From IMG/VR virus record IMGVR_UViG_3300028591_000009, positions 1 through 64,000 of that record: DNA of 64,000 nt. One strand, 5' to 3'. A model generated the notes under the pieces. That model had not been told where the DNA came from and ran no database searches. It was given only the letters and a program-made list of their open reading frames with translations. Position numbers and translations under genes: made by a program. This document shows positions 17,685-63,006 of this stretch, in pieces. Origin of the DNA: a virus. Lineage: Duplodnaviria; Caudoviricetes. The stretch's first letter is position 1. Each line of letters opens with the position of its first letter.

Positions 17685-20600
17685 ATGAAACAAGAAAAAA
17701 AGAAATTGTGGGTTCCTAAAGAAGATTTTAGAACTCGCTTTGCACAAAGAGATCTGGAAATATCTATAAGCGAATATAATAGAATTCGTGATCAATATTT
17801 GGCATCTCAGCGCAAGAAAAGAGAACAAGAGGAGAAAATCCGCGAAGAAATAGAAAAACAAGAAGCTATTGAAAAAGAAAGAAAGCTTCAGCAGTAGAAA
17901 TAGGCAGAAGATACATTAAAACAGTCTGAACCTGCTGGTCAGCCTAAATAGAGACAAAAAAAGGTTGATCAGCAGAAAACTGCTGTTTCAGATATAAAGA
18001 TACCTAGCATACAAGAGATAGCAGATAGCAATAGGGCAAGTATCAATAGTTTTCTAAATCGCAAAATAACATCTAGAAGAGCGGATGCTCCATAGGAAAA
18101 GAAGGAACAATACCTAGACATAAGTGTTCCATCGATAACCGGCCTAATGGATGACTACACGAAACCTGTAGTATATAATACTACAAGCGGAATGTTCTAG
18201 GTTATAAATGATCCCGAAGAAACAATTTCTTCCGCAAGACAAGCCTTATTGAATAGACCAACTCCAGAAGGTCTTTCTGATTATGAAAGTAGATATTTAC
18301 AAGCTACAGACCCAATATAGAGATTAAATGATGTTCGCAATAGATATAATGTACCAAGAGATCCTGTTGACATAAGAGAAGAACAGGAAGCAAAAGGTAC
18401 ATTTTGGGAAAATATTGCTTCAAATTTAATGACTCCTGGGTATGGAGCTGGACAAGGTAATGTATATGCCACACAACCTTTAAATAATATAATATCTAAT
18501 AATATCAACAGCAATATAAAAACACAATACAATATTGCTGACAAGAAAGACAAACAGTATATAGACGATATAATTAGTACATGGTCTGTTGGTAAGAACA
18601 ATGCGGAGTTTGATGCATATGTAGACTCTGCTGTGCGTCTTGGCGAAAAAAAGCAATATGCAAATATCATCAAACAGTATAGCGACAATATAGATCAGTA
18701 TATACAACTACAGCAACAGTTTAATGAATCTATAGAAGATCCTAACGTATCCGATGAAGAAAAGAGGCAGATAGTTGTTCAAATGAACAATATTCTTGCA
18801 CAAAATGAAAAACTGCGCCCAAAGGTAGAAGAGGCAGCATCATATAAATACAGTCCTACAGTAGGTGGTACTGTATTTAAAAGTATTAGAGACTTCTTCT
18901 TTAATATACTAGATGGTGGAGATTATGGAAAACAGTTTAAAAAGAAGCATAACCTTCCAGTAATTTCGGATATTATACCAGATGATGTTGGAAATTATGG
19001 ACAATAGCTATTAGACTTAGCTAAATCATACAAACTGACTCCTGGTAGAAATATAAATGAATAGTTCTTAGCACAATTTGAAAATCTTAAAAACAATATA
19101 AATTCTACAAATGACAAATTCCAGTCTGATGTAGATGAGGAAATAAAGAAAGATAAAGAATTGGCTCTTAGAAACAAACAAGAAGCGTTAGATTGGCTTG
19201 AATGGCACACGCCGTCTGCAGAATTTAAAGCAAAGGAAAAGGCTGCATAGGCAAACTATCTTACAGATTTCGATACGTACAAATACGGAATGTGGGGTGT
19301 TTTGGGATCTTCCGCTTCGTTCAATGGAATTCAACTTCTGTCTACAGGACTTAACTGGCTTGGAGCTGGCTTGTTGATGGCACCTCATCCTGGAGCAAAA
19401 GCTGCTGGTGCCGTATCTACTGCAGCTGGAGCTGGACTTGGTATTGTATCTGGTGTATATGAAAATAGAGCTGAAGTTACATAGAACTATATATCAGGTC
19501 TTCGTAACTCTTTACAAGAAAGAGGCTTATTAAAGAAGTTCTTGGAAGATGGTAAGAAACAGCTAGAACATAAAGGAATCGTTGTTAGAGATGATGAAGA
19601 TGTATTTAGACACTTTATATTAAAAGACTATAAACCAAACAATCCAGTAATACAAGATCTTGCTTTACGTCATATGTTCGGCGCAAATAATGCGTTCCAA
19701 AACGATATGATGGCTGTATCAGCAGACGTTGCATTTAATGCTGGATTGAACGTATTTGGTGCAACAGGTAAAGTCGCTGAGGCTATGAAACTTTTGCCTC
19801 AGGGTAGTAAGTATGCAATTCTTAGAAAAGTTGCAGAAAACGATTTGGGTTCTGCAGCATATCACGCTACAGCAAAAATGGCAAAGCCTAATGTGTTGGC
19901 CAGCGCATTGTCACCATTGGCTAATATACCATACAACGTTGCAGTAAAACCTATTGTGACGTCTATAAGCGGCGCTATGAAGCCAATGATTAAGTAGGCT
20001 GCTACATACATGGCAAGAGCTGCAGAATGGGCGAGAATTGCTCCAAAAGGCATATTTAGTACATCTACCGTAGGTAAATACGCATTCAATTTCCTCGGTA
20101 AGCAATTAGCAAGAGGTTTTTCTGAGGCAGTCGAAGAAGGTAAGCAGTATGAATACGGTAAAATGTTCTCAGAAGGAAAATTTGCCGGAAAGAGTAATTC
20201 TATATTTAGTACGCTTATAGATGATTTATCAACTGGACTGTATACTGGAACCGCATTTATAGGGAGTCAGTTCTTAGGCATAGAGCCCGATAAAGAGCTG
20301 ATGTCAAATATGCGCGGCGGCTTCCTCGGAGGTATACTCAATAGTGGAGCTTTTATTACTGCTACACAAAACACAATAAACGCTGTTGGCGAATTGCGCG
20401 CAGGCGATGTATTTTTCAACAATATAATGGCTGAAAAATTAAGACAGCGCAGCAATATTATTAACGGCGAGGAGATGGCAAAATATGCATCTAGAAGCGG
20501 ATACGTAAATATGATGAACGCAATAGATAGAGCCGAGCGTATTCATCAACATATATCAGAATCTGCTTCAGATAAAGTTGGTTTGTCGGAAGAAGAAATA

Positions 20601-23600
20601 GAAAATCAAAGAAATCAGTTTAAAAGAATTGCTGCGATCGCAAACTCAACAGAAGCTAAAAACAGAGCTAAAAAATTGGGTATAAAAGAAGGTAGCGATA
20701 GATTTAGATCTATGGTGTCTTTGATGAACTATGCAGACCAAATGCAAATGGAGAATATTAACCTGTTTAATGATTTAGTAGATTAGGCATAGCAAATTCT
20801 AGAAAAAGACGGAATTAGCCTTGATGTTACTAAATTATTTGAACAAGCATGGAATTCTGCATATACCGACGAACAAAAAGAGTTAATAAATAAAGCAGCT
20901 GAATTTGTGGAATGGGCACAACCATTAAACAATCAGATTGTGGGACAATATAATGCTCTTAATAACCTTATTTCTGAATTAGAATCTAGATCAGAATTCC
21001 TTACTAGAGCCGAGCGTAGAAACTTAAATCACTACAAAGCTCAGCGCGAAAAGTTAGATTCAGTTGTAGAAGACATTAAATCAAAGATTGGTGGTACAGA
21101 AAACATGCAATTCATGAATAATGTTCCACAAGATATCTTAGATAAATATACTTCTATTTACAGAACTCTTTATTAGGCTTCTGCACAATTAGAAACATCT
21201 ACTCTCGTTTTAGACAATCTTTGGGGTAGAAATAATGCAAAAGTTCATGCTAATGACTATGTTGCAGATCAGCTAGATTTTATCAACAGTAGAATAAATG
21301 AACTGAATAAAGAAAAAGATAAGGCAGTAAAAAGTTCTAAAAAGAGCGCCAGAGATCGTGCTGCACTAGAGTTTATTGAACAATATGAAAAGTCTGTATA
21401 GGACGACATTGAGTTAATGGCAGAAATTGCCGACAGATTTGATAAGGAGCAGGACGATAGAAATAAAGGTTTATATGGTGCCGTAGAAGAGGAATAGGAA
21501 GAGCCAGAAGAGCCTGGGTTGCCTGGACCTGTAGTAAATGAAGAGCAACAGTAGCAACCAGAAGATCGTAGCGTTCAAGGATTGCCTACAGATACAACAC
21601 AATTAGCGTTGCCTGTAATATCTCAATTCCCAGTTGGATCTACAATAGAGAGTATTAACGAACCTGGAAATGTATTTACAATACGCGATATAAAGATAAA
21701 TCCGTCCACGGGCCAATTCTTGATAGAAGCTCAAGATCAGAAAGGTAACACTGTTACAATAGAAGATACTGAAGCCGATCAATATCAAAAGGCATTGCCT
21801 GCACCATATCATTTTGAAAAAGTATTCGAAAAACAAAAACAAGATTCTTGGTTGAGATTTAAAAAGAATTCGCCGTTTGCATAGGCATTTGAAGCTGCAA
21901 AGAATACACTTCTTCCTGCAGTAATAGACGATTCTTTTGTTGAACAAGCTAGAGTTTTATTTAAAGCGAGAATACCAAGAGGCTGGGATGTAGATAGTTC
22001 TTAGTACGACATGATGGAGAATCTTATGACCGTAGATTCTGTATATAGCAACAAGATGGTAGAATGGAATCCCATTTACGGCTGTATATATAAAAATAAT
22101 AACGGCCAATATTTCTATGTACCGTCATTTACTAAGCTTACTCCAAGTATATATCCAGATTTTAGAGCTAGACGAGATGCTAAACTTAAGATTGTAAAAC
22201 AGATTTCAGATCTTAGGGATAGTAATATGTTGGAAGAGATATCAAAACTTTTGGAAGATCACAACATAAATGCAGAATATATCAACGTCATAAACGACAA
22301 TGCTGCACTAATGTCTATTGCCGAACAAATTTCTGAATTCGACAATCCATCTACAAAAGAGTGGCTGGCAAATAGAGCTAGATATACAGACCTGGAATAT
22401 CTATTAAATTCTCCAGAAGGACAGCGTATATTCGGTAGTGGTACCGTAGTTCTTACAAATATTCAAACAAGTATTGCAAATCAATCTGCATTTATAGATG
22501 CTATTAGTATTGACGAAGATGGTCGCGCAAATATATACATAATGGCATTCCCGTCTAAAATGTGGACCGATGAAGATCTTGACAATAAAGGAAATCATCA
22601 GGAAAGCACTCGCAGAGAATATTATACACAAGTAGCAAATGATTTGTTTGCAACACTAGATCCACACGTATAGCTCGCTGTAAAAGGTGTATATGTACTA
22701 CCAATCAACCAAATGGGTACTGGCACACCAATACAACTATCTATAACTACACCAATAAACAACAACACTGGACTTCAACAGAGGGCTTTAAACTACGCTA
22801 ACAGCCTGGATACAGAGCTTGCTTATTATATATCAAGACAGGAGCAGAAAAGCCGTCCTAGACCCGCTACAGAAGGCGACGGAAGTCCCGAATTAACGTT
22901 GCAAGAAATACTTGAAAGTTTAGAACAGTTTGAATAGGCGATAAACGATGTTTATAGCGGTAAACTATCGTTTAATGGCAAAATAAGAGCTGATGTAAGA
23001 TAGTTCTTGGACAATGATAAAAATGTATTAAACAAATATAGAAACTTTTTACGTCGTCAAGAACAAACACAGGAGATAAAAGACAGTATCAAACGTATAG
23101 AAACAATATGGCAGTAGATTGTAAATATATTATCTGCATACAAAACAGCAGATGTGTACAATCCTGAAGATTTCGTATACGAAGGCGAGACTGTCGATTC
23201 ACATCGTCCCATAATACCAGATAATCATCCGCTTGCAGCATTGTCTACTTCGGGTATACCAGTTACAGCATCTAGTGACTTTATAACAAACGGAAAGGCT
23301 GAGTTGATGTATGGATGGTATAATCCTACAACAAAAGAGTTTGTAAAGTTAAATGGGTATAGTACACATCCTGGATCCGGAGTATATGTTGTATTTACAT
23401 ATAACGGTGTAAAATACGATCCTATAATGGTTCAGCCTGCACATTATAAAGCAGGAATATAGGCGTATACAGAGAAAGGTGCTCAATTTGTTACTGATGT
23501 AATACAGATGCAAAATACATCGGAGGGTCTACCGATTATCGTTACTGCTAGAAGATTGATACCAAACCCAAGATACTATGGTCCAACCAAACCGTTGTTA

Positions 23601-26600
23601 GAAATTCCGTCGTTAAGAATGACAGAAGATGATATACAAGATATTACCGGAGATTCTGATAATGTCGGTATAGCAAATTCTAATAACAACGTACAACTTA
23701 TAAACAAAGGTGAAGATAAGTCTATCTTGTGGAAGTTTAAGAGTACGTAGGCAGGAAGTATATTCTTATTACATACATTTAATTTTGCAGAATATCCTGA
23801 CGGAGGTCAGATTCCTGTAAAACTCATACCGGCAAAACTAGATAAGTCTGATATCGATGTAATAATAGATATACTTAAACAAAACGCATCTGGTATAGCT
23901 ACAGGATTTAGAGGAACTCTTACTTCTAGATACCATACCAAAGACGGAAAAGAATCTCCTATTACAAACGAAGACATCCTCAGAATGCTTACAACATACG
24001 ATAATAGACCTAGCGATAGATCTTTGTTCTATGTTGACGATTATGGCCGTGTATTCTTTAGACAAAGACAGTCTGACAAAATGCCACAACCAATTGATAT
24101 TCTTACTGCGTCTGGAGAACAGACTCTAAGATCCTTACTGAGCAATGGGTACGAAGTCGCTTAGAATAGAGATGTACTTAGCGCACAACTAGGCAATCAG
24201 ATGGATCAGATGTTTAGTGGTCTTAAAAAATGGATTAAAGAGAATGGAAGTCTGGTTATAAGTAAGAATTTGGTATTTGATGAACAGGATGTAGATAGAA
24301 ACGGAAGAGGTTTTAGTGGTATAGGATGGTCTATCAGACACGGTAGATTATTAAGCAACCTCAGTGGTATATACGAACCGTCGATATCTTTATCAGATCC
24401 AAGAATTGATAACGGTACGTCTACTGCACAGGTAGAACAATCTTCTGAAGAATCTACCGAAACAAGAGAAGAGCGCATAAGAGATCCATTTGCATCTGGT
24501 CTTTTGAATAATCAATTTGAATTTGGTGTTGATTGGTATGCTACAGAAGAACTTCCAGAAGAAACTCTAACAGAAGAAGAAGCTAGAAAAGATATTGCGT
24601 CTATTTTAGGGGATGCTGCTGTAGAGTTTGTCGAGGATATTATTTGTATATTGGACAATGGATTAAAAGCCCTAGGTGCTACTTTAGATAATGTTATTAT
24701 ACTTAGTAAATTAGCAGGTGCTGGGACACAATTCCACGAGGCGTTCCACAAAATAATAGAACTTCTTATAGACGATAAGACTAGACAGAGGATATATAAA
24801 GCGTTTAGTAATTTGCATCCGGAAATAGATCCAAACAATGCAAGATAGATAACAGAAGGTCTTGCAGAAGACTTTAAGGCTTACGCTAGAAAAGAAAAAT
24901 CTTCTTCAAAATGGTCTAGATTCTGGAGACATATTTGGAAATTTATAACGACTATGTTTAATGCAGATAAGCGAGTGCTATATAAAATGTACAGAGACGC
25001 TTATCGTGGAAAATATAAGAATATAAAACCATCTCAAGAAAACATCGATCGTTTTAATAGGATATTTGATATATCTAAAGAAGAACGAGGTGTTTTGTAT
25101 CATACAATATATGATGCTTCGACTGGAGAAAACATAAACCTTCCAAATGTTCCATCTGATGTAGATTATAGAGACGCTATCAACACAATAGTTGATTATA
25201 TTGTATCAGAAAGTGGCGCCGGTTTGTTTGGTGAGAAGGTAACCAAAATACAGTTTACAAAAGAGCGTGTATAGAAACTTGGCAAAGACGGCTCAGTATA
25301 TAAGAAACTGATAGGCGGAAAGAATCCAGATGACATCAATAAAATATTTATAGATATTTTTAATAACTGGGATCATGTTTTGGGCGATGTTGTTTTAAGC
25401 CTCAAACGCTTTGGATTGCATTTTAGACACAACAAAGGTACAAACGAAATAGAAACATTTAAGACAACGTTGTCTGATATAGAAGAGACAGCAAAGAATG
25501 AGGCTGATGAAAGTAAAGCAAAGAGCGCAGATATAAATCAGTACGAGCTTGCGGACTATGAGATATCTAAAATACAAAAAATGTCCGAAAGAACTAAATA
25601 TTTCTTTGCTACTATTCCTGATATACGTTTTGTAGAAGAGTTCGATGAAGAACCGATGTACGTTGTTGAAAAGAATGTATATGGAGAACAGATAGATGCT
25701 AAGGGACGCGTTATAAAAACAGATCCAGAAACAGGTGCTAGATATATAGAAACTAAAGAAGGAGAAGTTATACACGTTCCTAGCAAAGACGGCCAACCTA
25801 TAAGTACTGCGCAAGTGCCTATAAACATGGTAAGAAATACAAAACCTGTATATAACAAGTTTGGATTCCCACAATTTGCTCCGTTCTACAATACATGTAA
25901 AGTTGCTCTGAATAGATGTTATTCTGCAAATAGCCTTGAAGAATTACTACAATTATTTATAGACGCTTCTACAGAATTCCCAGTTTTTGTTACAATTGCT
26001 CAGCGTTTTGCGTCTTTGTTAAATAATATTAAACTTAGAGGTAAGAAAGGAACTTATATAACAACAGACGGTAAGGAATATAGAAGGCTGAATAATGGTT
26101 TGTTCCAAGAAGTTATAGGCAAAGATAAATACGGAGAAGAATATTATACGGTCGACGAATTGGATTTCAAAAAGAATCGCAATAATCAAGCAATGGCTGT
26201 ATCTATATTCAATAACATTTCTGGTACAAGATTGCATTTCTTTAACATTATGAGTACTAGACCTTCTCCAAACTCAATTGTATTTTAGAGAATGGACACA
26301 GAAGGCGGGTATTCTGCCAGAAAGTATACTTAGGCATGGCACGCATTGTTTATAAACGATATAAATAAGGTGCGTCCTGCAGAAGTTATGCGACATGGAG
26401 AATAGATCGTAATATATACAGCAACAAATAAGAATCTGTTTAAAGATGTAGCAAACGAACTAAAGCTTATTGTAGACAGCTATACAGACAGACGGAGCGT
26501 TGGTTGGAGAACTGGAGAAATAAAACTTGGCGGAAAGGTTGTTTATGTTAATCGAGACCCAGAAGCAGTTAAGGCTTATTATTTAAAATTATTAAATACT

Positions 26601-29600
26601 ATAGGCATTACTGTTACCGCTAAAGAGTTTAATCATCTATTGTTCGAATTATTTGGAAAGACCGATATTCATGCTTTACGTAAGTATTTCCAGCAAGATG
26701 GCGAAGACTTTGGTAGAACAAAAGGTGTTAGTATACGTAAACTTATATTGGCTATTGAGTAGGGAATATAGGAAAATGGAGAGTATTCTAGAACAGTTGT
26801 ATCGGGATCATTCTACAGTGCAATTGGTGCAATAACTCAACTTGCTGACGGTATTTGGTCATATAGACAGACGACAAAAGATCTTATGACTAGAGCTCCT
26901 GGTAAGAATAGATATTATCAAGTGGCAAATAGAAATGCGCAAGATGTATTTATGCAGGATCTTAATACTCCCGATAGCAAAATGCTTAGAGACTTCTTTA
27001 GTAGCCCATATCACAGAGGTTCTATAATGATAGATGCTTTAATGAGAGGGGATGTATATCTGAGGAGTAATACTAACGCGGGATATGTCAGTGACAATAA
27101 GAGTGACTTTGGATAGGACTTTATGAGTATTACTGACCCAGAGGACGCAATAAGCAAGATGACACTTCTTATAGAAGGAGACATTACTCCTCCTACACTG
27201 TCTAATAAGAAAACATATCAACCTGTTTAGATTATTGATCGTAAAACAGAGCAGCAAATACAGTTACCTGGTATATATTACATAGCAAATAGAAACAATG
27301 CACAAACTGCAGATGGTACTGCAGAAGTATATAGTGCAACAAATGTTCCAATTCTTGTAGATAAACCATGGGTTAAACGTGCACAAGGTGATTATAGTCT
27401 TGAGGGAAAGGAATTTGTAGTATCTGATTAGGTATATAATACTCTAATCAAATATGCGTTCTCAGAATATTATCAGATAAAGCAGAACATTGAACGCATG
27501 AAGACAATTCCTGAAGGAGAAAAGGTTGTAAACTACGATACTGCTACTAAAGGAGCAAAGATACCTGGAGCATTAAGATTTTCAAGATTCTATGAAGTAT
27601 ACGTCAGAGAAGAGGTTGATGGAAAACAAAAGTGGATAACTGTTAACTTCAACGACAACAACGCGGAATCGTATGAAGATAATCTCAGAAGAGCTGAAGA
27701 AGTATTCTTTGGAAACGATATAACCTACGAGATGCGAAAAGCTATGCTTACTGAGATAATAAACAGACGCCTAGAGGAGAATCTAGAATATTTGGTAACG
27801 CAGGGTATTCTTAAGCATCGTAGTAAAAACTGGAAGAGTCAACCTGTATATTCTAGATATGAACCTGTTGTTATAGATACAGCACACTTAAACGCTATAC
27901 AAAAACAATACGGACAAAAAATGTCTGACCTATATGGAAACGCCGTAATGCGAAGTGTTGCAACATGTGCGTTTGTTTTAGATATAATGCTTAAACACCA
28001 AATAGGTCTCGAAGAATATCAAAGACTGTTTGTTGGTAATCCTGGATTGTTTGTTACTCTGTTTAATGAAGACGGTAGTGTTAAAGATGATACCGGAGAT
28101 CTATCAAAGCGTTTGGGTGGTCATATGTCTACAGGCGAAACTCAGTGTAGATTGGATGATGCTCCAGATGAATACACCGTTGCCGAGTTAAAAGATTTTA
28201 AGACAACTTCTTCGCAAATAACAGAACTTAAAAGTTGGTTTGAAGAAAGTGAATCGCGTTTTGTACTGTATGCAGATAAGCAAAAGTCTATTTCTATATA
28301 GATTTAGAAGTTGAGATCAAATCTACAAGCAATTGCGTTTGATATATTTAAAAAGGCATATAACGCAGACGGTATATTAAGCACATACGAAGACGTATTT
28401 AAATCAATTGAGGATGAATGGGCAGAAAAGTTTGCTTCTGCGTTAGAGGCGATAAGTAAGTCAGAATCAATGGTTGCTTATTCTATAGCCATGAAGACTT
28501 TGCTTGGAATTATAGATTCGTATAAAACCAGTGTTGTGAGTGCTGAATATAAACGACAAAGACAACTGTCTTTACAACAAGTTAAAGACGAACTAGAAGA
28601 AAGAAAACTTCTTACTGGTGTAAACACTCGTATCGCAGCATATACTTCTAATTTCGTTTCTAAGATAAATGTAGCGGACGGTGCTTCTTTTGTAAGCCCG
28701 ATTATGGTCAAATACATGCTTATGAAGATTGGTAAATTTACCGGCAAAGTCGAAAGGGCGTGGGAATCTCTACAGAAAGGAAACGTATTAGACCCGCTAA
28801 AGAGCGCTGTATTATACAAAGAAATAACAGACGCGTTGTTTGGTACATAGAAGTATACCGCTACCGGATATAGAATGAACAATGGCCAACCTATTACATA
28901 TTATACAAAATCAGCATTCTTCCCACTGTTTAGACAAAACGCACACGGAAGAACCAAGGATATTTTGGATAAAATGGAATAGGATAACGTAATGATGCTT
29001 TGTTTTGAATCAGCTAAGAAATTTGGCAGTCAGGGTAAACAAGATTTCCCAACTACTCCAGAAGAACTTAGCAGCTTCCATTTCAATGTATATAAAGAGG
29101 ATTTCAAATATCTCAGAAAACAGTTGAATACCGATCCAAAAGAAGAGAATTTACAATCTGTAGGATCTCAGACAAAGAAGATCGCGCTAACTATTCTAGA
29201 CATATACAAAGATGATTATGTAAAACGTGATGGAACTACAGAAACTGGACAGCAGCTTAAACAAAGAATATTCGACTGCGAAAGAAGCCTTGCTTCTATA
29301 GGATTCTTAGATCTAATGAACAGATTCTCTAGTGTAGAAGAAAAGGCTAAATATCTTAGAGATAATCTTGGAGAACGAGATGCTGATTCGAATATGTTAC
29401 AAGGTTTATCTTTGGTATTAAATCCAGAAACAAGACAAAAGAGAATGCGTGCCCATTTGGAAGCGTTGTCTAATTCTGGATGGATACAGTCGATCATCAC
29501 GTCTCTTGCAAACAAACATATAGTAGATATAAATCTACCAGGTAGTGCATATATACAGAGATCTGTATATGCGATGGAAGACAATAATATTCTTGGTGAT

Positions 29601-32600
29601 AATCAAGTATACGGTATTCCAAAACTACACATATCTAATGACTGGAGTAGCATGGACGCTGTTGTAAGTATTGACTACTTCTATCAGTTCTTCCCTCAAC
29701 TCGAAGACATGTCCTTCGAAGACGCAAGACAGTGGCTTATTGATCACAACGTAATTGGTGAGAATGCAAAAGCTGAAACTGTAGCATATCGTATTCCAAC
29801 ACAGGCAAACTCGTCTATACACGCTCTACGTTTTATAGATGTAATAAGTACGGTAAGAGATACTATCATACTTCCTGAGGAATTTACAGCTATTACTGGT
29901 TCTGACTTTGATATTGATAAACTGTTTTTATCTACAAAATTCTATTCTTTCGACGAAGAGACAGATGTAGTTAGTACGGAATTTGATAAGCTGAAAGATC
30001 CTATGAAACACTTCGGTAATGAACTTCTGGAGTGTTATCTAGAGCTTCTTACGCAGGATAAGAGCAAATATGCAAATCAGCTTGTTCGCTCTATTGACTA
30101 CGATACATCAATTCCTATGAAAGTTGTTAATTTGCTCAAAGAAGGTAAAGTTGATAAAGTTACGGTATACCAAGCTTTACAATTGTGGAAGCAATGTCAA
30201 ATTAAAGCTTTAAATAGAACTGGTGGAATTAGTGTAGGACCTTACGCTTTGAATAATAACAATGAAATAATGACATCGTTGTTTGAAGTAGAAAGCGATA
30301 ATGTAGGTCTTATACAAGCTCTTGATATAAGCAGATTGTATGATAAACTGGACGCAGAAGGAAACTCCGTAATGGCTACAATTGGCGCATTTATTACTGG
30401 TTCTGTGGACATTGCAAAAGACCCGTGGATTGGCGTATTGAATATCAATGAATACACTTACGATATTCATATATATCTCGCTAGAGCGGGCATGGGTTTA
30501 CGTGCTTTGTGGTTCTGTTCACAACCGATAATGCGTAAAGCAGCAGAAGTATACATACGAGCCGGTGGTTATTTGTTTGATAAGAAAAACGAAAGCGTTT
30601 GGGTTCGTAGAAATAGAGCGTTTACTTAGTTGGAAGATGAATATCTGTTGGACGACGATGGTAAAAATGGAAAGGAAGCTGAATCTACGAAACTACTTAA
30701 AGCAGTAAAAGCCTATCGTAATAGATATGACGCTCTTGGCGGTTCTAAAGCAAAAGACGCGTTAAATCATCGTGTTACAAACGCAGTATACGCAATACAG
30801 CAAATATTTGGCGTTTCTCCAGAAGATCCTTCTGTTAAAATAGACAACTTTAAAGACAATAATGGATTCGATCACGAAGGTACTATATTGCAAGATATAG
30901 CACTGTTCCACAATAAAGAAGAAGATATATTTGATCCAGAAGAAAGATATACAATAAAACAAAAAGTTATTACTGAAGACGGAGAGATTATCGATAAAGA
31001 CATAAAAATATCCGTAAAAGATGTTCAATTCTATGTTTATCTTGCTAATATAATGATTGACGATCCTGTATCAGATATGAAAAATCTTGTACAGTATAGT
31101 AAAATCGAAACAAAGAAACAAGGTAAAAATAGAGCGGAACAGTTAGCATATAATCACAAATATGATTCGTTCTTTAGCAGAGGAAATACTAAGATAATGT
31201 TACCAGAAACTGTTCAGAGAATGGTACAAGATTCTAGTATTGATACAAAGCAAAACTTGTTTACTACAGCAGTAGAGTAGATATTAGGAAAAGAGATGCT
31301 GTCTTATACTCCAGCTTACAAGTATTTTACTGAAGAATTTTCTTCTGTAGCTGTACTTCCATTTACTAAGGATGTAATGAAGAGTATTATTGATGGTGTA
31401 TCTTCTTATCAGAAATGGGAATATATTGAACAATATGCTGAGTTAAATGGTATCTCTATAAGAGACTTATTTGTTGGATCTAAGAGCATTTATAATGAGT
31501 TGATGCGAATAAAGCAGCTTATTATAAATTATCCTGCTGTATATAAAAACTATACAGATGGAAACGGAGATATTACAAATGCTCTGCTCGAATCTTTACA
31601 ACCTTCTGATATTCCAGGATATATAATGTAGGACTATGGTAAAACGCTGCCTAAATTTGTTGATTTTGGAGCAATTCAAGAAAATGAATCTAATAGTAAC
31701 AACGATATTATTGCAGGGTGGGCTCAGATGTTACATGACGAAGAACATAAAGATTTGCAACATTTTGCAAAACGATTGATAGTTTATTCGTTTATAACAT
31801 CTGGAGATACAAACAAACCTGGATCATTCTTTAATCTTGTTCCATTCTCGTGGAGAGAAGATGAATCCAAAAATAGGCTCGATTAGTCTTATATACAATA
31901 TATAGATCAGCTTATAAACGATAGCCAAGAAGGTGATGACGAAGGTAAATTTAGAATCTCAGACAGATTAGAAAATGAAGGTATTTATGAGTTGATTCTT
32001 AGAAACAATTGGTTTGATGACAATCTTGTTCCTACTATACAAGAAACATCAAAAGATGATATGGGAAATACCGTAAGTAACTATTTCTAGTATACAGTTG
32101 CCGGAGAACCTATATTAATCTCGTTGGTAAAAACTACTATAGACGGCAATGGAATGAGAAGATTCCATGAGGCAACATTAGACAAACCAAAACTCATAAT
32201 AAAGTTGCATAATTATGACGCTCATAGTTATAACAACCCACAAGACTTCAAGTTGTATAGATTTGTAAGAATGGGTACTGTATTTGATGCTGACGGAGAA
32301 CCAATAAGCTTCCCTATATATGGAAGAATATCATAGATTGGCGGAGTAATGTACGGACATCATATTATTACGTATCGAGACGATCTTGATATGTCTTGGG
32401 AGCGAGATACTAAATGGTATACAGACAATCTTGACGCCAAAATGGTCGAAGGTATTGCTCAAATAAAAGATCAATTTGAAATTGAGTTTAGGAAAAACGA
32501 AGACCAAATAGCAAAAGGTGTTGTTACAAGAGAGGAGTTGAAATTAGAAACTGCCAAAAATATGGTAGAACAACCAATTATGGGTTCATATGAAGATGGA

Positions 32601-35600
32601 ACTCCGATTGGGTATACAAGAAGTAATGCTACTTAGTTCTACGAAATGGTAAAATCCATGTCTATGTATCATGTTTTGTACGATAAGAAAAATGTTAGAT
32701 ACGATCATAATAACTCTCTTAGATCAATTAAAAAACCAGAACCAATAAAAGATTCTAGTAGATATACGCTGCATTCAGGAGGTGCTCCAGGATCAGATAC
32801 ATATTGGGGAGAAGTTGCTACTCAATATGGTATAGACAGTTAGCGTCATTATTATCACGGAGAACAATCTCCTTCTAATGCTCCAAACGCAAATACAAGA
32901 ATAACAGAAGGTGATTATAACGAGGGTAAAAAAGAAGCTGCAGCTGCTGCAAAATATAATTGGGGTTATCAATACGATTCGATGAAAGACGATCGTCTTG
33001 TTCGCAATTGGAGCCAGGTTAAATACGCAGATGGAATATTTGCAATAGGCCATATAGCTAATCCTGGTGATCCTGTATTCCCAAATCAACCAAATGACAC
33101 TCGCAAAGCAATACATCCGTGTGTTTAGGGTGGTACTGGTTATGCAGTAGGAATGGCAATACTTCACTAGAAACCTGTATATGTGTTTGACCAAGAAGAA
33201 AATCAATGGTTTGCTTGGGATGGATCACAATTTAATCCTATAGATACTCCAACGCTAACTCTTAATTTTGCAGGCATTGGAACTAGAGAGATTAACGAAG
33301 CCGGTAAATAGGCAATTAGAGATGTTTTTGAAAAGACGTTTAAAAAGGTTGTAGAAACAAAGTCAGAAGAACAAAAGAAGATAGATATTTGGAGTACTAA
33401 TCACGACAAATATGCAAATCTTTCTAATGTTGCTATAAGATCTATTGATATTACCCCATCTATCGTATCTGTTGTAAACGAGCATTTCCCGCAAAAAGAA
33501 TCTGCAAAAGCTTTAGATAAACTTGATAATATAACAGAAAGTAGAATGATAAATCGCATATTGCGATTAGCTCCAGAAGGATTTGATAAGTTTAATTCTG
33601 TAGAACAACTATTCTAGCTTATTAAGTTCGAAGCAATGAAGCAATTTATAAGAGAATCTGCTAAAGATTTATACGGATTATCTGGTGTAGATATTGCAAA
33701 AGGATCTACTGAAACTGCTGCTGCAATAAAGAGTGTACTGGATGGTATTAAAGATAAGCAGGATAGAATATTTAAGTCCACCGGATCTAAGATTACTTCT
33801 ATAAGCCATGAAATGATACCTGATATTGATGGTATTAGAGATGCGTTCTTTAACGAAAAGTGGAATCAAGGTGGTCCAGATAATGTATTGAACAGTACTG
33901 CATATGCTATTATTCGCGAGATAATGCTACAATCGTTCTTACAAAATACAGGAGCAGCAAAGTTATTGTTGTCTACAGAGGATTCTGAATTGACACACGA
34001 GAAAGGCGGACTTTATTGGAAGACTGGATTCCCAGCTGCGCTTATGAGCGTTCGTGCCGAAATAGCAGAAAACTATAATACCATTAAAGATGTTGAAAGT
34101 AGAGCTCTTACTTTATTAGGTGGAGATGAAATGGCATATAAGGAATATACGACAGCCATTAAAGCCGGAAAAGAAGGAAAGATGTTCTCTGATGTAGAAC
34201 CGTTCTTTACTCCGGAAGAAGCCGAGCAAATAAAATAGGCTATTCCTAATATGAAGTTCATGGGTAATGATGGTAAGCTTATTGTTACTAGTGCTAGCAG
34301 ACACACAGATCCTGTATTCTATGCAACAGAAGTAATAAATATACTTAGAGAAAATTCTACCAAGCCGTTTACCGATCCAACTAGAATAAATGTTATTGAG
34401 TTATGGAGTAAACATGACGGCATACCAATGTAGAACATTCTCGAGGCTTGTAAGAAGTATAGAGTTGCTCCGATGGTATCATTTAGTATTACAACGCTTG
34501 GAAATACAGTATTTGAGCCTGGTGTTATGAAAGCAGACGATTTGCTTGATAATATAGAAAAGCTTATAAATATAGGTATTCTTGATCCAAGGGTTACTAC
34601 TTTTAGAATAGATCCAATTCTTGTTGGCGTTACTAGTATTCAACAGCTTAAACATGTTATAGAACGTGGTGCGAACATGGGTATTAGAAAGTTTGTTACA
34701 TCTCCTGTACAATCGTATGCGTCTATGCCAAATAGAAGCGTAATTCCTTATGTTGACAAAGCTCTCAAGTCTGACAGTGATTCGTTTATAAAATATCCAG
34801 ATGCTGTAACACAGACTGGAGAATACAACTGGATGAAATATTATGGTAAAGATAAACATAGACCACAATACATAGCGTTTACACCAAAAGCTGAATATGT
34901 TAAACCATACATAGACATGTTCCAAGAAATGATGTCTAAATATGGAATATCTATACAAAGCTGTGCTGTACCTATGGCAGGACTTACACCTTCTGCATGT
35001 CTTGACCCAGAAATCATAGAAGCTATTACTTCTCTTAAGACAGATGCAGTAGAGGATGCTACTAGAAAGTTCTGTAAGTGTTACGGTGTACATTCTGATG
35101 TATTTAGATACAATGACGAATGTAAGAGTTCTTGTGTATATTGTTATGCAGGACAAATGAAGACAGATCCGTTTGATTATTATGACGAATATGGAAAACT
35201 AAAAGATTTTGCTTATAGTAAAGTAAATGAGTATTCTGAAATAGAAGACGGTCCTGTTAAAGTTGTAATTCGCAACGACGAATATACACTGAATGGAAGA
35301 GATGTTGTAGACGCAAATGGACAACCTGTTGACGCTGATACCAAAAATCGTGTAATATGGAAACGTGCAGTTGATATAAACAAGGCAAATCTTGTCAAGG
35401 TTGGCGGTATATATTATGTTGTAACAAACACTGGTATTATATTTAACTGGGGTACTGCTAAAGTTGAAAACTTTGGAAAATATGATACCTTAAAGAAGAC
35501 TATTTTAAGAGCTGCACAGGTTCAATATGATAAACCTGTAGTAAGCACTGTATTTAATGCAGCTGAGTTAAAACAACTTGGCGAATCACGTAAAAAATTC

Positions 35601-35612
35601 TGTAAAGTTTAA
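17685..35612 (+). CDS. Giant virion RNA polymerase polyprotein, ~5975 aa with TAG=Gln (TM segment, degenerate PD-(D/E)xK domain, zincin, double-psi-barrel RNAP core, SLOG, NADAR, DUF1848)
   Basis: Single frame with about 54 TAG (hand count) and no TAA/TGA until 35610-35612; DFDID at 29904-29918 preceded by YRIPTQ; HEAFH at 24735-24749. Confidence 0.85.
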
Positions 35613-35614
35613 TT

Positions 35615-38600
35615 ATGGTATGTATTTATAATCCGTCTACGGAACAAATAAATGCATTAGATCGATATTCACGTATACTAGGCAGCGAAGAAGCTGCCTA
35701 CTACGTGTTATCGTAGAATAATGGATTTCCGCTAGACAAAACACCGAGCGATGAAGATTCTGACTTATATATAGATCTTGTCAATCATTATGGCAACGAA
35801 GAAGAAGCTATAAGAACAAAAGCAATGTTGTATACACAGCGATTCTTTGATGCAAATGGAGACTGGACTATGGGTTCGATGACTGATCCCTCGATGTATG
35901 ATGCAAAAGGAGAACCAAAGTCAAGTTTTGTACTTGGTTCAATGACTGGTGAAATGGAAAGTCTTATGAATCACCAGTTTTTGTTGGATACAGTTCATCC
36001 AACAATAGAATAGAGCGATCTTTCCAGAATTAGCCCTACAGATGATTTATCTGATTACGCTGTAGAATAGTTGATTAGGGAAAGCTACGATTAGTATACA
36101 GAACGACATAGAAACGAATATAAAAGAAACCATCCATCTGCCACAGATACCGAACTTGCCGAGTAGGAAGTTGTTGCTAGCAGATAGTGGTATAGTCGTA
36201 AGGTGTAGTCTATATTAACCGAACAAGTTAGATCTCTAGCTGAAGCTTTTGGATTGGTATATATACAAAAACCGAATGGTACTGTAGAATTACAAACAAG
36301 AGGAAGAAATGCTGTTACTGGTGTAAAAGAGCTAAGATTGAAGTTTTTAAATAATATAATAAACGATAGATTTGAAGACGAGTTAAGACAGTCTATATTA
36401 GGAAATGTAGTATTGTCTAAAGAGTTTACACTTAAAGTTCCAGGCGCAAAAGATTACATAAACGAAGCTGTTATACAACGTCGTAAAAGCGATAAGTTAA
36501 TAGCTGCTAGTACTCTTATAAACGTAAGCCTTACAGGTGGTACATCTACAACTGTAAATAAAGCATTAGCGTATCATTATATTACAATGTTTGTAGATAG
36601 CCCTCTAATTCAAGCTGGTTTGGAGGCCGTGAGAGATACTGACGACAGAAGCGAATTGTATCTTGTAAATAAGCTAGTTGATATAATAACAACTCCAGCC
36701 ATAGTTGGTGTAGAAAATTCTTCTTACGTTGGTAAAGCTTTTGAAAATGGAGTGTCTTATGAAACGTTTAAATCGTTTTGGGACGAATTCGACGATCTTA
36801 TTCATTAGGTTATAACAAACGGTGTAAAGTCTGAAGAAGCTAAAAAGAAGATATTATCTGTAGTTGCTGCAGCATTTATAACAAATGATCAATATAACTT
36901 GTGGAATCGCTCATTTGGTTATATGACAACAGGACCGATCGATTATTATGCGCAATGGTATTCTACAAAATATAAACCTTGGGGTGAATAGAATGAGGCT
37001 TAGTTATCAGAAATAGAAGCGTTCTTCAATTTATTGGAAACGTATTATCAAAATAAAATAAAAAGACAGGAACGAGATGCCAACGTATCTGCCGAACAAA
37101 CAACAAGAACCTCATTGGCTTTATAGTTCTTATAGTAGTCTGATAAAATGGATCCTACTTCGCAAGAAGAAGTTTTTAATAGTCTGTTTGAACTTGCATA
37201 TCAAGAAATTAGAGATGCCACGGAAGCTATTCAAAACCTCCATAATATAACTGGTATAAACGATAGATTTTCTAAGCTTGGTAGTATGTATAGCGATACA
37301 ATATCGTTTTATAATTATATACTAAATAATTAGCTAACTAAACATTTTGATCCAAGCAGTACAAAATTCCCAAGACAGATTGGTATGTATAATATGTTGT
37401 CTAATATGCTAAAAACATTAGATGGCATGTATAAAGAAAAACTGTATGATGTTTCATGTGAGTTTGTCGATAAATATATAGACAAACATATGGATATAAA
37501 TCAGGTAACTGCCGAAATGGTAAGGAACGCCAAAGAAAACGCACATAGAGAGCTTAGAAATAATGCTATATATGGAGATCTTAAGAATTACGAACTGTGG
37601 ATTACAATGAACTCTTTATCCAAAAGTTCGGTAGTAAGAATGATGCATGATTCTTTGCGCAGATTGAATTATAATCGAGATCAAGAAACATTATATGTGG
37701 CTCAATAGCTGCAAAAAGCTTTAAAAAAGGCATAGAAATCTTTGCTTAAAGGTGGAATTAAGTGGGCAGGATATAGGTTTGTACCAAAGAATTTCCAGAT
37801 GTTGTTTATGGAAAGATATGATGACGGTACACCTTCTGGAATGTTTACAAGAAAACGTCATTATGGTAATTTCTTTAAACGTAGAGCAGAGCTTGTAGTA
37901 CAGTTAGTAAGAGACATCGAGAAAGATATACAAAATAAAACTGGAAACATATATTTCAAGATGGAGCTTGATGACTACGGCAACCCTATATTTCCTGACG
38001 GAGAAGAGTGGGATGAATATTGGAGAAAATATTCACACGCTGTCAATGATTTTGAATGCAAAAATGGACATAAACGCTTCTTGCAAGAATATTACGACCT
38101 AAGAATAGATACTTTATCTAGAAAAGCAATTGCTCTCGAAGATAATATATAGAATTCTATAGATATAATCGAAAGTAGTGTGACAGAAGATGAGGTTTAT
38201 CGTCCAGACAGACTAACCAGAGAAGAGCGTGCTTAGTTATAGGATTTATATAGACAGCAAGATAATCTTGGAAATGAATATACTTTACTTGGAGAAAAGA
38301 AAAATGGAGAAGACCTTAAAATAGCTTAGGAAATAAAAGAGTTTAGAAGGCTTATTAAAGATCGCGTTGTTTATGAAACAGACGAAGATAAATATGAAGC
38401 CGCCAAAGCTAAAGTAGATCCGTCTGAGTTATCAGAATTTGAAAAATGGTCTACAAGTCTAGAAATAAATCCAAAATTTTGGGAAATTTATAAAATTCTC
38501 CAAAAAGAATACAGAGATCAATTTCCAGCTTATTTGAATCCTAATTTTGAACAAATAGAACGTCTTGGTAAAGAACGAAATGATATCGTAGATATAGTAA

Positions 38601-41600
38601 AACACAGACGCGGTTTTGCAATGCCAAATTTAAGAGATTTATCAGAAAGCTCTTGGAGAAGAGTAAAAGAGATAGATGAAGAAATGGATATTGCATACGA
38701 ACCGATTGTTGCGTATATGAAGTCAATGCCAAAAGGGTCTTTAATTCCTTCAGCATTCAAACGTATAGCAAGGTTAGATGATGTTATGGACAATAAAGAA
38801 CCAGACACAACAGCGTTTGACGCGTTAATGGATGAAGCAAGACAACTAGACGATGAAGAATCTTTAGCTTTAGGTGTTCGTGTAAACACACACGAAATGG
38901 AAGCTTTGGATAAATATACAAGAACCGTTGTTACTGATGGAGGAATAAAAACAGTTCCGTTAAGTATATTTTCATATATGAAACCTTCCGTTTTCCCAGA
39001 CGACGTAAAAGCCAGATTTGGAATAGGAGACGATTTTAAATATACGTTAATGCTTCCAAATAGAAAGTATAATAAGATGGTTGAACCAAGTTCTTCTAGA
39101 TATGCAGAACCATCTCTTGTTGATCCTGAATTTGATCCAAACGAAGATTCATATGTACAACCAACAGAGTTAAATCCAATATACGAAGTACTTGAAAAAG
39201 AGGCACCAAAAGAAGTATTTGAACTATATAAGTTATGCATGCAAATAAAACAAGAAGCTGACACATATATACCAATAAGTACAAAGCTTAAATATTTCTT
39301 ACCTCAAATGAGAGCATCTGATATGGCTGTAATAAGTAGAATGTTATCAAGAGGTTTATTGTCAACAACATAGGAAGTGTTTACAAATAAATTTATCGCC
39401 AACGAAACCGATGAAGAAATCATAGATGATTTTACTACACTTCCAGACGGAACTAGAGTAAACAGTGTTCCTTTAAAATTTGTTGATAAACTCAGAGATC
39501 CTTCACTATTATCTTCAGATGTTGTAGGTTCGCTAGTGCTTTATCAACACATGGCATCTAACTATTATTATAAACAATAGGTTGAGCAGTTATATCAAGC
39601 GTTATTATAGCAACTCGGTTAGGATTCTGATATTGTTACAGACGACGGAACCAGACATCTTGTACTTGGTAAAACAACAAACCAATATGCAAAATATAAA
39701 AACGTAATGGATAATTTGTTGTATGACCAAAAACAATTATGGGGAGAACGTGGAAGTTAGAAAATAACTGGTGTACAAAAAACTTTAATAAAAACCGCAA
39801 AATTTATTGCAAAACTTGGTACTATAACTGCATTGGGAAGAAATATTCTATCCTAGACTACCGGTTTCTTTGATGCTGCCGGAAAATTACATTCGTTTGC
39901 TTTTGCAGGAGACGCGTTTAATGTTAAGAATATAACAAGAGCTATTGCAATTTTTGATAAATATTTAATATCTGGAAGACTGTTTTTGGCTACTGGATAG
40001 ATATTACCAAACAATATAATAGCTGCGATAATGCAGAAGAATAATTTGAGCACTGGAATTCAATATAAATATCAGGGTGGATATAAAAATCGCTTTAGAA
40101 GATTTGTTGGAATGGAGCGCTCTGGTATGGGTGGATTTAGAGTTAGTGATTACGCTATAAATGCAGTTACAGCATTGTCTATATACGACAATTACAGACT
40201 ATTAGACGATTAGTTTTTACCAGAACGATCATTTAAAAATAAGCTGTATAAACTAGGATATTCCTCAAAAGAAATAGATAGAATGTACGATGACGCGTTA
40301 CCGTTATTGGACGCATATAATTATAAAGATAGTGTATTCTTCTTTGGAGATCCTGAGTTTGAACTTAAACAAGAGTATAAAGATATGCTCGGTGAAGCTG
40401 GTGTTACAAAACTAGAACAAGATATAGCAATAGCTGTATAGACTTGGACTCCAAAATTTAACGGAGCTGTTGCCGATGAAGATAAAGCTGTAATACAACA
40501 AAACATACTTGCTGGTTTTACAGTTGCTCTTCGTTCGTATCTCATTAATGAATTACAAACGCGTTTTGTAAACGGTGCAGATTTTTAGGATCCAAATATA
40601 TCTGAACACAAGCTTGAAATATTATAGGCTAGAAGAAAGGCTCTTGTTAAAGTATACAAACAGTCTTTAACTGATAATAAAAAGAAAACTAAACTACAAA
40701 AGCTTTTTGATAGACGTTCTGAAATAGAAGCAGAATTAATAAGTCTTAAGAGTTCTGGTGATATTAACAGTATAAATTGGGGTAATATAAAAGATTTAAT
40801 CGGATTATCTTCTATTGAGGTTGGGCTAGGATATGTTATAGGAAGTATAGCAGGCCCTGTTGGAGCATATGTTGGAGCTGGTCTTGGATTAGCTCAAGCG
40901 GCTGCAAACTTTTATACAAACCGTAAATAGTCTTCTGGAAGTAATGTTGGTATATTTATGTCTAAAGTTCGTAAATTAGAAGTCGAACTTAAAAGTATAA
41001 ATGCCTAGATTAGAGCGTATGAAGCTAGCGATAGCCGAGATTTGATTCTTATGGAAATACAATAGATAAACGAGCAAATTGTAAACATAAAAAATAAAAT
41101 CAATGAAAATCAAGGCTATTACGACTATGCGAGAAATATGTATACAAACGGATCTAATAGACTTGCCGGAAGATTAATTATGAATCTTGCTAGAAAAGCA
41201 CAGTTTTATATAAACACAATGCTTCCAGAAAGATTTAAGAGTTTATCTCCGAAATATAATCCAAAAATAACTCCAAATCAAATAAAAGGACTTAAACGTA
41301 TTGTTTATGATCTTGTACGTTTGATGTAGTGGTGGCTTATAACAACATTCTGTTTGTCATGGTATCGTTACGATGACGGTAGAGCTTTCTTAGGTGGAAA
41401 GTTCAACGAATAGACAACTTCTGTAATGCATAAAATGGATAGTGGTATAAAATCTGCCATAGACCCTGTAATGACATCTGATACATGGATTAAATTCTGG
41501 GAAGGTGTACACGATTCTTCGACAGATGGAGTTATTAGTCATATACCATTCTTTGATAAAGTTGCAGAAAACAAGTCTGACGCAATGCTTGGTTATACTA

Positions 41601-42106
41601 AAAAAGTTAGTAGAACTACAAAAGCAGTTACACGTAAAAAAATGGATGCTGTTCAAAAACAATTAGATTTTATAAAAATAGCAGCCGCTGCTTAGTCTCT
41701 CAAAAACTTTACAGAAGGTATAGCACCATACGACTACCAGACAATCAACGACCTTACAAACTCAGTTTCTGCAACAATAAATGTAATGACAAAATCTGTA
41801 GAGGCTGGACAAAATATGATTGTTGAAGGCCAACAAGGTAAACTAGAAGATCCTATGCAAGGTGGACCTTATACGGGATATTTTACCAGATCGGAATATG
41901 GTGCTGCACATTCTTGGTATAGGCCTTTTGGTTATCCTGCTTCTTATGAACAATCTACAGAAATAGGTTTGGTTAACCGCGTTAATTATCTAGGAAATAC
42001 TGGTCTTAATAGATTTGTAATACCCAAGAAAGAATCTGTTTAGAAGAAAGGAAATAAAAAGAAGAGCGGTAGAAAATCAAATCGTGGTGGACGTAAGTTA
42101 CGTTAA
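35615..42106 (+). CDS. Large virion cargo protein of the RNAP block, ~2163 aa with TAG=Gln
   Basis: Single frame joining track fragments 35825-42043; gaps read contain only TAG; ends in a basic tail KKSGRKSNRGGRKLR-TAA. Confidence 0.8.
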
Positions 42107-62438: not shown

Positions 62439-62499
62439 TTTTGAGGCGTTTGTTTTTATAGTGGTGTCAAGCGAGCCTCTGTAAGCATGTCCACAACAT

Positions 62500-62549
62500 T
62501 GGAATGAGTGCAGGCTTCGAACCTGCCATAGTTCCGTTATTACTCATTC
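62500..62549 (-). ncRNA. tRNA minihelix-like element (acceptor stem plus T arm only)
   Basis: GAATGAGT/ACTCATTC 8-bp stem and GCAGG-TTCGAAG-CCTGC joined by a 15-nt linker. Confidence 0.65.
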
Positions 62550-62551
62550 AC

Positions 62552-62860
62552 CGTTCACAGGCACTTAGGTAGCCTGTACACCGACTTCACGCTGCCTCCT
62601 GGAGACCCGTGTAGTCTGCAATGTTATAATTGCCAGTTAATTTTTATATCGAAGCGCTTAACGTCTTACTTTCCGCTGCCGTCAAAACCATTCAAGCCCA
62701 GATTAAAAGCTCCCGCCTCTATCCTCTGTACACCTTCTTCAGTGCCAGCGAGTACACAATTCAGGGAGCTTGGAGTGTTAATCAATAATACACGTGGACC
62801 TGGGCGGAATCGAACCGCCGTCCGAACAGCATATCCTAGGACACGCTAAGATTTCACTTG
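62552..62860 (-). ncRNA. ssrA: Circularly permuted (two-piece) tmRNA: acceptor piece ~62860-62795, intervening sequence 62794-62700, coding piece 62699-~62552
   Basis: Acceptor GGGCUUG/CAGGUCC-A with G3-U70; GGUUUUGAC D-loop analogue; GGAC-GGCGG-UUCGAUU-CCGCC T arm; tag frame 62634-62587 = GNYNIADYTGLQEAA-UGA after UUAACU. Confidence 0.88.
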
Positions 62861-63006
62861 TGAACCTCACAATGATCAGTTGTAAGATTCGATTTAAGGC
62901 TATTTACAGCCTCTCTGACGCATTTTCTATACTCTTGTGGGTAGCTAATCCTCTGGAGTATATTAAACGCTTAGAATGGCTTTTTCATAAACCTTTATTT
63001 GTAGTA

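Follow-up and report, generated by a model that had tools for sequence, protein, structure and literature searches.

The window analysed here is a stretch of 64,000 nucleotides (nt) of DNA from a gut crAss-like phage (Duplodnaviria; Caudoviricetes), namely the first 64 kb of the complete 106.6-kb IMG/VR record IMGVR_UViG_3300028591_000009, which carries terminal repeats. With TAG read as Gln, its plus strand encodes a giant open reading frame (ORF), ORF G (17685..35612, +; 5,975 aa, 54 in-frame TAG, stop codon TAA at 35610-35612), in which an RNA polymerase (RNAP) core is followed by two further regions and then by a cassette of a SLOG-like, a NADAR and a DUF1848 domain. The DUF1848 domain (34194..35225, +; ORF G residues 5504-5847, 344 aa) is the subject of this work. 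Its limits were set by comparison with crAssphage cr272_1 (Suoliviridae, Oafivirinae, pig faeces), the closest GenBank record. An earlier note, made from the letters of this DNA, had read it as a DUF1848 domain resembling radical S-adenosylmethionine (SAM) iron-sulfur (Fe-S) enzymes that ends such a cassette on the virion RNAP. The domain is the last of the three, but it does not end the ORF, because 128 residues follow it.

Pfam DUF1848 (PF08902) matched the domain with an E value of 9.7e-18 (65.4 bits against a cut-off of 30.5; model positions 4-262 of 262; nt ~34293-35150), and a genome-level search returned the match again at 65.8 bits. The PADLOC model RTasDUF1848, which represents the DUF1848 partner of defence-associated reverse transcriptases (DRT), matched with E 6.3e-30. 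The family identity proposed from motifs is thereby upheld. The motifs quoted in the earlier note are present in the frame starting at 34266 (its start coordinate, 34265, is one base off that frame), and the CxxxCxxC motif stands exactly where it had been placed, at 35121-35144 (CKSSCVYC, CxxxCxYC). Conserved Cys codons also lie at 34962, 34998, 35073 and 35079. In an alignment of 62 phage-type and stand-alone sequences, C257, C269, R291, C294, C296, C310 and C314 are invariant, and E108, R138, D140, P141, S170, Y175, D302, Y316, C317 and Y318 nearly so. The same residues are invariant across 22 stand-alone DUF1848 proteins, and the family-invariant residues are retained in 60 phage-type and 70 bacterial sequences. 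The window copy keeps seven Cys (C257, C269, C294, C296, C310, C314 and C317) together with E108, R138, D140, P141, S170, Y175 and R291; judged by these residues, the domain is intact.

The AlphaFold2 model of the domain (predicted local distance difference test score, pLDDT, 93.4; predicted template modelling score, pTM, 0.92) shows alternating strands and helices. In an exhaustive VIA-align comparison, radical-SAM enzymes made up 17 of the 19 best Protein Data Bank (PDB) representatives (Z 8.0-9.6, 150-207 residues aligned), the other two being DUF512 proteins. The top matches were a radical SAM methyltransferase (6fz6, Z 9.6) and pyruvate formate-lyase (PFL)-activating enzyme (for example 3C8F; Z 9.4 and 8.9), and spore photoproduct lyase (4fhc) aligned over 207 residues at Z 8.7; Mmp10, Cfr, SkfB, SuiB, NifB, viperin and HemN were also matched. 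A search of BFVD returned the cr272_1 protein first (E 6e-31), followed by several viral radical-SAM proteins. The domain has a CX3CX2C motif of radical-SAM type, its last Cys preceded by an aromatic residue, although at a non-canonical place, the C-terminus of the barrel. The aligned target ranges begin past the usual N-terminal cluster loop, as would be expected if the cluster motif of the barrel had been displaced to the C-terminus.

The sole radical-SAM profile to match was NF033668 (rSAM_PA0069), at E 0.9, and PDB sequence searches with the domain and with the family profile gave no meaningful match. A match to plasmoredoxin in the PDB sequence search (E 0.0015) was rejected as short and compositional. 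The fold and the Cys motif favour the radical-SAM-like label of the earlier note, and such a fold is likely. Three of the seven invariant Cys belong to CX3CXYC, and the set as a whole suggests two sites, a radical-SAM cluster and a second cluster or a metal site. Going by present evidence from motif, fold and conservation, DUF1848 would be catalytically active, as an Fe-S enzyme of the radical-SAM kind with nucleic acid or nucleotides as its substrate.

The RNAP core (27060..30545, +; ORF G residues 3126-4287) contains GSDFDIDK, with the catalytic DFDID at 29904-29918. A profile of this core and eight relatives matched PDB 6VR4, the DNA-dependent RNA polymerase gp66 of phage phi14:2, with E 1.2e-85 and with SDFDIDK aligned, and tblastn with the core matched the 'putative RNA polymerase' of crAss001 and 74 Crassvirales records. 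The core of ORF G is, by these alignments, a homologue of the phi14:2 gp66 virion RNAP (vRNAP). The cassette lies in the same ORF as this core, as the earlier note had claimed in placing it on the virion polymerase. In crAss-like phages related to this one the vRNAP is packaged and ejected (PMC10136315, PMC7886860), and by analogy with these relatives we infer that the ORF G protein is packaged in the virion and ejected.

With table 11 the region splits into short ORFs, the longest of them 34473..35612. Reading TAG as Gln turns the plus-strand block 3036-42106 into a series of long genes, and the 5,975 codons of ORF G (17685-35612) then hold 54 TAG, no TAA and no TGA. A transfer RNA (tRNA) with anticodon CUA, labelled 'Pyl' by ARAGORN, is encoded outside the window at genome positions 77731-77805 (+). 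This tRNA(CUA) is an amber suppressor and fits the reading of TAG as Gln in the plus-strand late genes. The TAG at 33615 occupies the conserved Gln of the 'FQ' motif of NADAR. Another, at 34431-34433, stands in frame inside the DUF1848 domain, so that this domain is made only with TAG read-through. In three related IMG/VR loci (L009, L014 and L015) DUF1848 and the RNAP core share a single ORF with 0-1 TAG, which is continuous or nearly so in the standard code. ORF G is also collinear with its orthologue cr272_1 gp23 (6,386 aa, 37 TAG), annotated 'hypothetical protein'; in GenBank and UniProt the cr272_1 protein is named 'hypothetical' or 'NTF2 domain-containing'. Because of the TAG at the NADAR Gln, the fusions with 0-1 TAG in three related contigs, the tRNA(CUA) and the orthologue gp23, the reading of 17685-35612 as a single ORF is secure.

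The tandem order SLOG-NADAR-DUF1848 put forward in the earlier note stood at profile level for DUF1848 and NADAR and less firmly for SLOG, for which a PHROG match and motifs speak. The NADAR domain (33375..34088, +) has two insertions. It shows SVEQLFQLIK at 33597, in which TAG (33615) encodes the second Gln, together with a His in the catalytic position (33996-33998, ELTHEKGG). Taken alone, the window copy reaches Pfam NADAR with E 0.005 (17.6 bits, under the cut-off of 35.1). It aligns to the NADAR of cr272_1 with E 2.6e-5, and the cr272_1 copy itself scores E 2.8e-8; relatives reach Pfam NADAR with E values down to 2e-15, and some match Phage_30_3. A NADAR profile built from the window copy and 10 relatives matched E. 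coli YbiA (2b3w, E 4e-15, positions 5-158) and a Phytophthora NADAR (8bau, E 2.7e-12). In the AlphaFold2 model (pLDDT 79; NADAR was modelled alone, not jointly with SLOG) the same two structures were the top two Foldseek matches, with far higher probability than the rest. In the last strand, the His of 'LTH' (nt 33996) stands opposite the catalytic Glu of YbiA 'LVEH' in the alignment. His in place of this Glu is the signature of the T4 gp30.3/AdfN phage NADARs, which remove ADP-ribose from guanine in DNA and defeat DarTG1 (PMC11125620, PMC11825919). The NADAR module is thus confirmed as real at profile level, and its sequence places it in the AdfN/T4 gp30.3 type.

The SLOG-like Rossmannoid domain (32712..33374, +) carries the motifs HSGGAPGSD (at 32763), RN..Q and GGTGYA. 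PHROG 768, 'DprA-like', matched it with E 2.1e-8 over nt 32757-33203; the window copy gave no Pfam match, and a SLOG profile gave no match among PDB sequences. Its relatives have weak Pfam matches to cpYpsA (4.7e-7 to 0.003), DprA (6e-4 to 0.0095) and Nuc_deoxyrib_tr (3e-4), and over eight phage SLOG-like copies 31 columns are invariant, with SGGAxGxD and GGT kept. A pairing of SLOG with NADAR in phages has been published (PMC9503650).

A HMMER scan of 1.84 billion representatives returned 286 DUF1848 relatives, 62 of which are large proteins of 800-7,200 aa. With jackhmmer profiles, the RNAP core was found in 44 of these 62, SLOG in 30-33, NADAR in 20-22 and DUF7831 in eight. When 13 large relatives were scanned with Pfam, the best E values were 2e-15 for NADAR and 1.5e-27 for DUF7831, and the same 13 proteins carried a superfamily 1 (SF1) helicase (AAA_30/UvrD_C_2/PIF1; five proteins), Phage_30_3 (two), ART-PolyVal (one) and cpYpsA (one). 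In one relative STAND-NTPase-like matches were also noticed, and such add-ons share the same variable region, for example residues 870-1329 of protein P0022.

DUF1848 was found on 17 IMG/VR contigs, in all 17 within an ORF that also has the RNAP core; these loci were retrieved with an alignment query, and a single-domain query on viral contigs matched none. Domain orders at these loci include that of the window (SLOG-NADAR-DUF1848), NADAR-DUF1848-SLOG, DUF1848-SLOG-NADAR-SLOG, DUF1848-NADAR, DUF7831-DUF1848 and DUF1848 alone. There are two layouts: the cassette either follows the RNAP core, as in the window, or precedes it by ~900-1,300 residues within one ORF (proteins P0026, P0070, P0028, P0034, P0062 and others; loci L009 and L014). 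Sequences of both layouts intermingle in the DUF1848 tree, a sign that rearrangement has probably occurred more than once. Suoliviridae that do not carry DUF1848 have other cassettes behind p1, the conserved region after the polymerase core: SLOG-NADAR-DUF7831 in cr130_1, SLOG in cr109_1 and NADAR-DUF7831 in cr131_1. The corresponding protein of cr118_1, annotated as a DNA helicase in its record, matched none of the cassette profiles. The view of the cassette as swappable is borne out by this variation in order and content, seen over the 17 IMG/VR loci, ~60 database proteins and five GenBank Suoliviridae. A separate observation concerns cr131_1 (L002, 1-17970), where the polymerase core is split into gp50 and gp48 by the 729-nt gp49, possibly an intervening mobile element.

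Among 50,697 GenBank phage records, and likewise among the 74 GenBank Crassvirales records with the RNAP core, cr272_1 is the only carrier of DUF1848. All phage-type DUF1848 sequences form one clade (support 1.0) on a long stem, whose sister is a subgroup of small stand-alone proteins. This topology suggests one capture of DUF1848 followed by shuffling. In a cluster look-up, this sister subgroup of bacterial proteins could be tied to a single named source, Lawsonibacter, and to no function.

Stand-alone DUF1848 proteins are widespread, with at least 484 matches in species-representative genomes. The 80 loci kept come nearly all from anaerobes (Clostridia, Desulfobacterota, Chloroflexota, KSB1, Calditrichota and some archaea), a bias that fits an oxygen-sensitive cofactor. 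Their neighbours include ABC ATPases, response regulators, aminotransferases, SelA/SelB and, at one locus (L081), a UvrA-like protein. The only published context that we found is a DUF1848 cluster associated with UG25 methyltransferase-reverse transcriptase fusions (Mestre et al., doi 10.1101/2021.12.02.470933), an association that PADLOC encodes as PDLC03815.

The remaining parts of ORF G flank these domains. Directly after the RNAP core, in the window and in relatives (jackhmmer, hmmsearch), lies the conserved post-polymerase region p1 (30546..31874, +; residues 4288-4730), without a known family. Between p1 and the cassette, region p2 (31875..32711, +) gave no match in Pfam, PHROG or PADLOC and is present in only four relatives. 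The C-terminal region Ct (35226..35609, +; 128 aa), between DUF1848 and the TAA, had no family match in profile searches; eight related giant proteins have it as well, placed ahead of SLOG or DUF1848 in some and behind them in others. For the first ~3,100 residues (17685-27059) no Pfam, PHROG or PDB family matched, and this part is conserved, in parts only, in cr272_1 (20-22% identity). The next and final gene of the plus-strand late block, ORF H (35615..42106, +; 2,163 aa, 38 TAG), occupies the position of cr272_1 gp22, and profile searches found no family match for it. Elsewhere in the window (62496-62886, -) a phage-encoded transfer-messenger RNA (tmRNA) with tag peptide GNYNIADYTGLQEAA adjoins a tRNA-Arg(TCT).

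We give slightly better than even chances to the reading in which DUF1848 is one module of a variable add-on array behind a crAss-type virion RNAP core, with a role in counter-defence or in the care of phage DNA. In the mechanism proposed, which draws on homology for delivery, late synthesis of the polymerase polyprotein would be followed by its packaging as cargo of the capsid and its ejection along with the DNA, on the model of phi14:2 gp66 and the crAss001 vRNAP. As a polyvalent protein it would supply the incoming genome with several enzymes. Its NADAR would remove ADP-ribose from guanine in DNA and so counter a DarT1-like defence, an activity known from relatives. DUF1848, to go by its motif, fold and conservation, would be a radical-SAM-type triose-phosphate isomerase (TIM)-barrel enzyme with a C-terminal CX3CXYC cluster motif and four extra invariant Cys for a second cluster or metal site. 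As to substrate, we speculate that Fe-S and SAM chemistry may place a modification on a nucleic-acid base or a nucleotide, or take one off, serving DNA care or the destruction of a signal beside NADAR and the SLOG-like domain. The conflict context is that DUF1848 is the partner of a UG25 methylase-reverse transcriptase, with a DRT model in PADLOC. A bolder form, in which DUF1848 would be the first radical (Fe-S/SAM) enzyme carried into a cell on a virion polymerase, where it reverses a host modification of the incoming DNA or destroys a nucleotide immune product, is tentative and to our minds doubtful.

Several points weigh against the favoured reading. On the structural side, the VIA-align Z of 8-9.6 barely exceeds the background stated for the tool (7-8); because the excess is so slight, the fold is graded likely and not proven. 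Foldseek against the PDB returned generic TIM barrels only, with low template modelling (TM) scores, Pfam Radical_SAM (PF04055) did not match at E <= 0.1, and the Cys motif lies at the C-terminus and not after strand 1. We know of no experiment in which a DUF1848 protein was seen to bind Fe-S, to cleave SAM or to act on a substrate, and of no reaction for the family. Genomic context adds no clue to the substrate, as no conserved partner emerged among 709 clustered neighbour ORFs of the 80 stand-alone loci. The placing of the SLOG-like module in the SLOG/DrHyd class of Rossmannoid domains, from the PHROG match, the motifs and the weak matches of relatives, is itself weak. Delivery raises a difficulty too: cargo proteins are thought to traverse the tail partly unfolded (PMC10136315), which would strip an Fe-S cluster, so that activity right after ejection would need its re-assembly in the host. 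Two ways out are re-assembly of the cluster in the anaerobic host and action of the domain in the producer cell. The cassette tail could also be cleaved off the polymerase.

The second of these options leads to an alternative in which DUF1848 acts late in the producer cell, for example by modifying phage DNA or nucleotides before or during packaging, the fusion serving to place the domain near the packaged DNA. The gene lies in the late, TAG-recoded block, so that its protein would be abundant only late, and partly unfolded ejection (PMC10136315) is hard to square with a pre-loaded Fe-S cluster. The neighbours on the same polypeptide, however, are of early anti-damage types, as judged from the AdfN-type NADAR (PMC11825919) and from polyvalent-protein logic (PMC5512222). 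The giant ORFs of the window yielded no further domains of a modification pathway. Radical-SAM enzymes do occur in phage nucleic-acid modification pathways, which counts for this alternative, but the module is optional in close relatives, which would be unusual for a genome-wide modification on which a phage depends. Taken together, we consider action in the producer cell unlikely.

The Cys could instead hold a structural cluster or zinc in a non-catalytic, metal-stabilised structural or DNA-binding module that helps to fold, anchor or plug the cargo. Fe-S clusters are structural or DNA-sensing elements in many nucleic-acid enzymes, the family is without a known activity and the likeness to radical-SAM structures is only moderate, all of which would suit such a module. 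It is hard to reconcile with the invariance of E108, R138, D140, S170, Y175, R291 and K73 in bacterial stand-alone proteins and 60 divergent phage copies, which is active-site-like, or with CX3CXYC and its aromatic residue before the last Cys, a radical-SAM signature; dispensability in relatives also argues against a structural role in the polymerase, and a purely structural module is in our estimate distinctly improbable. It would finally be possible to take TAG as a true stop, as the break-up of the region under table 11 invites, and to regard the DUF1848-like stretch as a separate protein (ATG 34473 to 35612, 379 aa) or a pseudogene remnant. The sequence contradicts this: the stretch matched by Pfam and PADLOC and homologous to cr272_1 crosses the TAG at 34431 and begins ~90 residues before the ATG at 34473, the fusion is likewise a single ORF in relatives that use the standard code, and the codon count (54 TAG against no TAA or TGA in 5,975 codons), the tRNA(CUA) of the genome and the TAG on a conserved Gln all speak for read-through. 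We hold a true stop to be scarcely credible.

The array reading remains preferred, and it gives the locus a wider interest. DUF1848 is a widespread orphan family. That it recurs, strictly conserved, on the (probably injected) polymerase of crAss-like phages from gut and rumen suggests a substrate among nucleic acids or nucleotides and a part in the conflict of phage and host. Biochemical work could readily start from this domain of 344 aa, which is modelled with confidence and sits beside a NADAR of the ADP-ribose-stripping type. Behind the crAss polymerase core there appears to be a hot spot at which putative counter-defence modules are exchanged, which bears on how the most abundant gut phages persist and on the range of their hosts. 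Were DUF1848 a radical enzyme that reverses a host modification or destroys a nucleotide immune product, the same chemistry run in reverse would account for its partnership with the UG25 defence reverse transcriptase, and a widespread orphan family would gain a function and counter-defence a new class of chemistry. In the searchable literature no mention of DUF1848/PF08902 was found in crAss-like phages, polyvalent proteins or phage systems of nicotinamide adenine dinucleotide (NAD) and ADP-ribose. The earlier note knew of no description of the combination; this holds for DUF1848 on crAss polymerases, which the searchable literature did not yield, but not for SLOG with NADAR (PMC9503650) or injected polyvalent proteins (PMC5512222), both published. 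The polyvalent-protein strategy itself is known; DUF1848 on a crAss polymerase is new relative to the searchable literature.

Set beside known systems, ORF G shares with phi14:2 gp66 and the crAss001 vRNAP a homologous core with DFDID and a place in a late block with other giant cargo genes. It differs in size (5,975 aa against 2,194 aa for gp66), and the solved gp66 structure has no counterpart of its SLOG-like/NADAR/DUF1848 tail. The likeness to AdfN/T4 gp30.3, which concerns the NADAR neighbour and not DUF1848 itself, lies in the family motifs and the His at the position of the YbiA Glu; AdfN is small and stands alone, whereas the window NADAR sits inside a cargo polyprotein and has two large insertions. 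With stand-alone PF08902 proteins the phage copy shares the same full-length domain and all invariant residues. The bacterial and archaeal forms are solitary proteins of 250-300 aa, whereas the phage copies are embedded in giant proteins, share 21-31% identity with bacterial ones and form a separate clade. With radical-SAM enzymes, which give its best structural matches, DUF1848 may share a partial (beta/alpha)6 TIM barrel; CX3CXΦC recurs in it, and the alignments suggest that the G..EP motif after strand 3 recalls the SAM-binding motif 'GGE'; DUF1848 departs from the superfamily in its C-terminal cluster motif, its four further invariant Cys and its lack of a Pfam Radical_SAM match. The closest conceptual parallel may be the polyvalent proteins of Iyer, Burroughs, Anand, de Souza and Aravind (2017, PMC5512222), virion-associated and predicted to act early against the host: these too are giant multidomain proteins with unrelated enzymatic domains of variable content and order, and one relative of ORF G carries ART-PolyVal. 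That account is without DUF1848, radical SAM, NADAR and SLOG, and its scaffolds are of MuF, DarB or relaxase type, whereas the scaffold here would be the crAss two-barrel virion RNAP.

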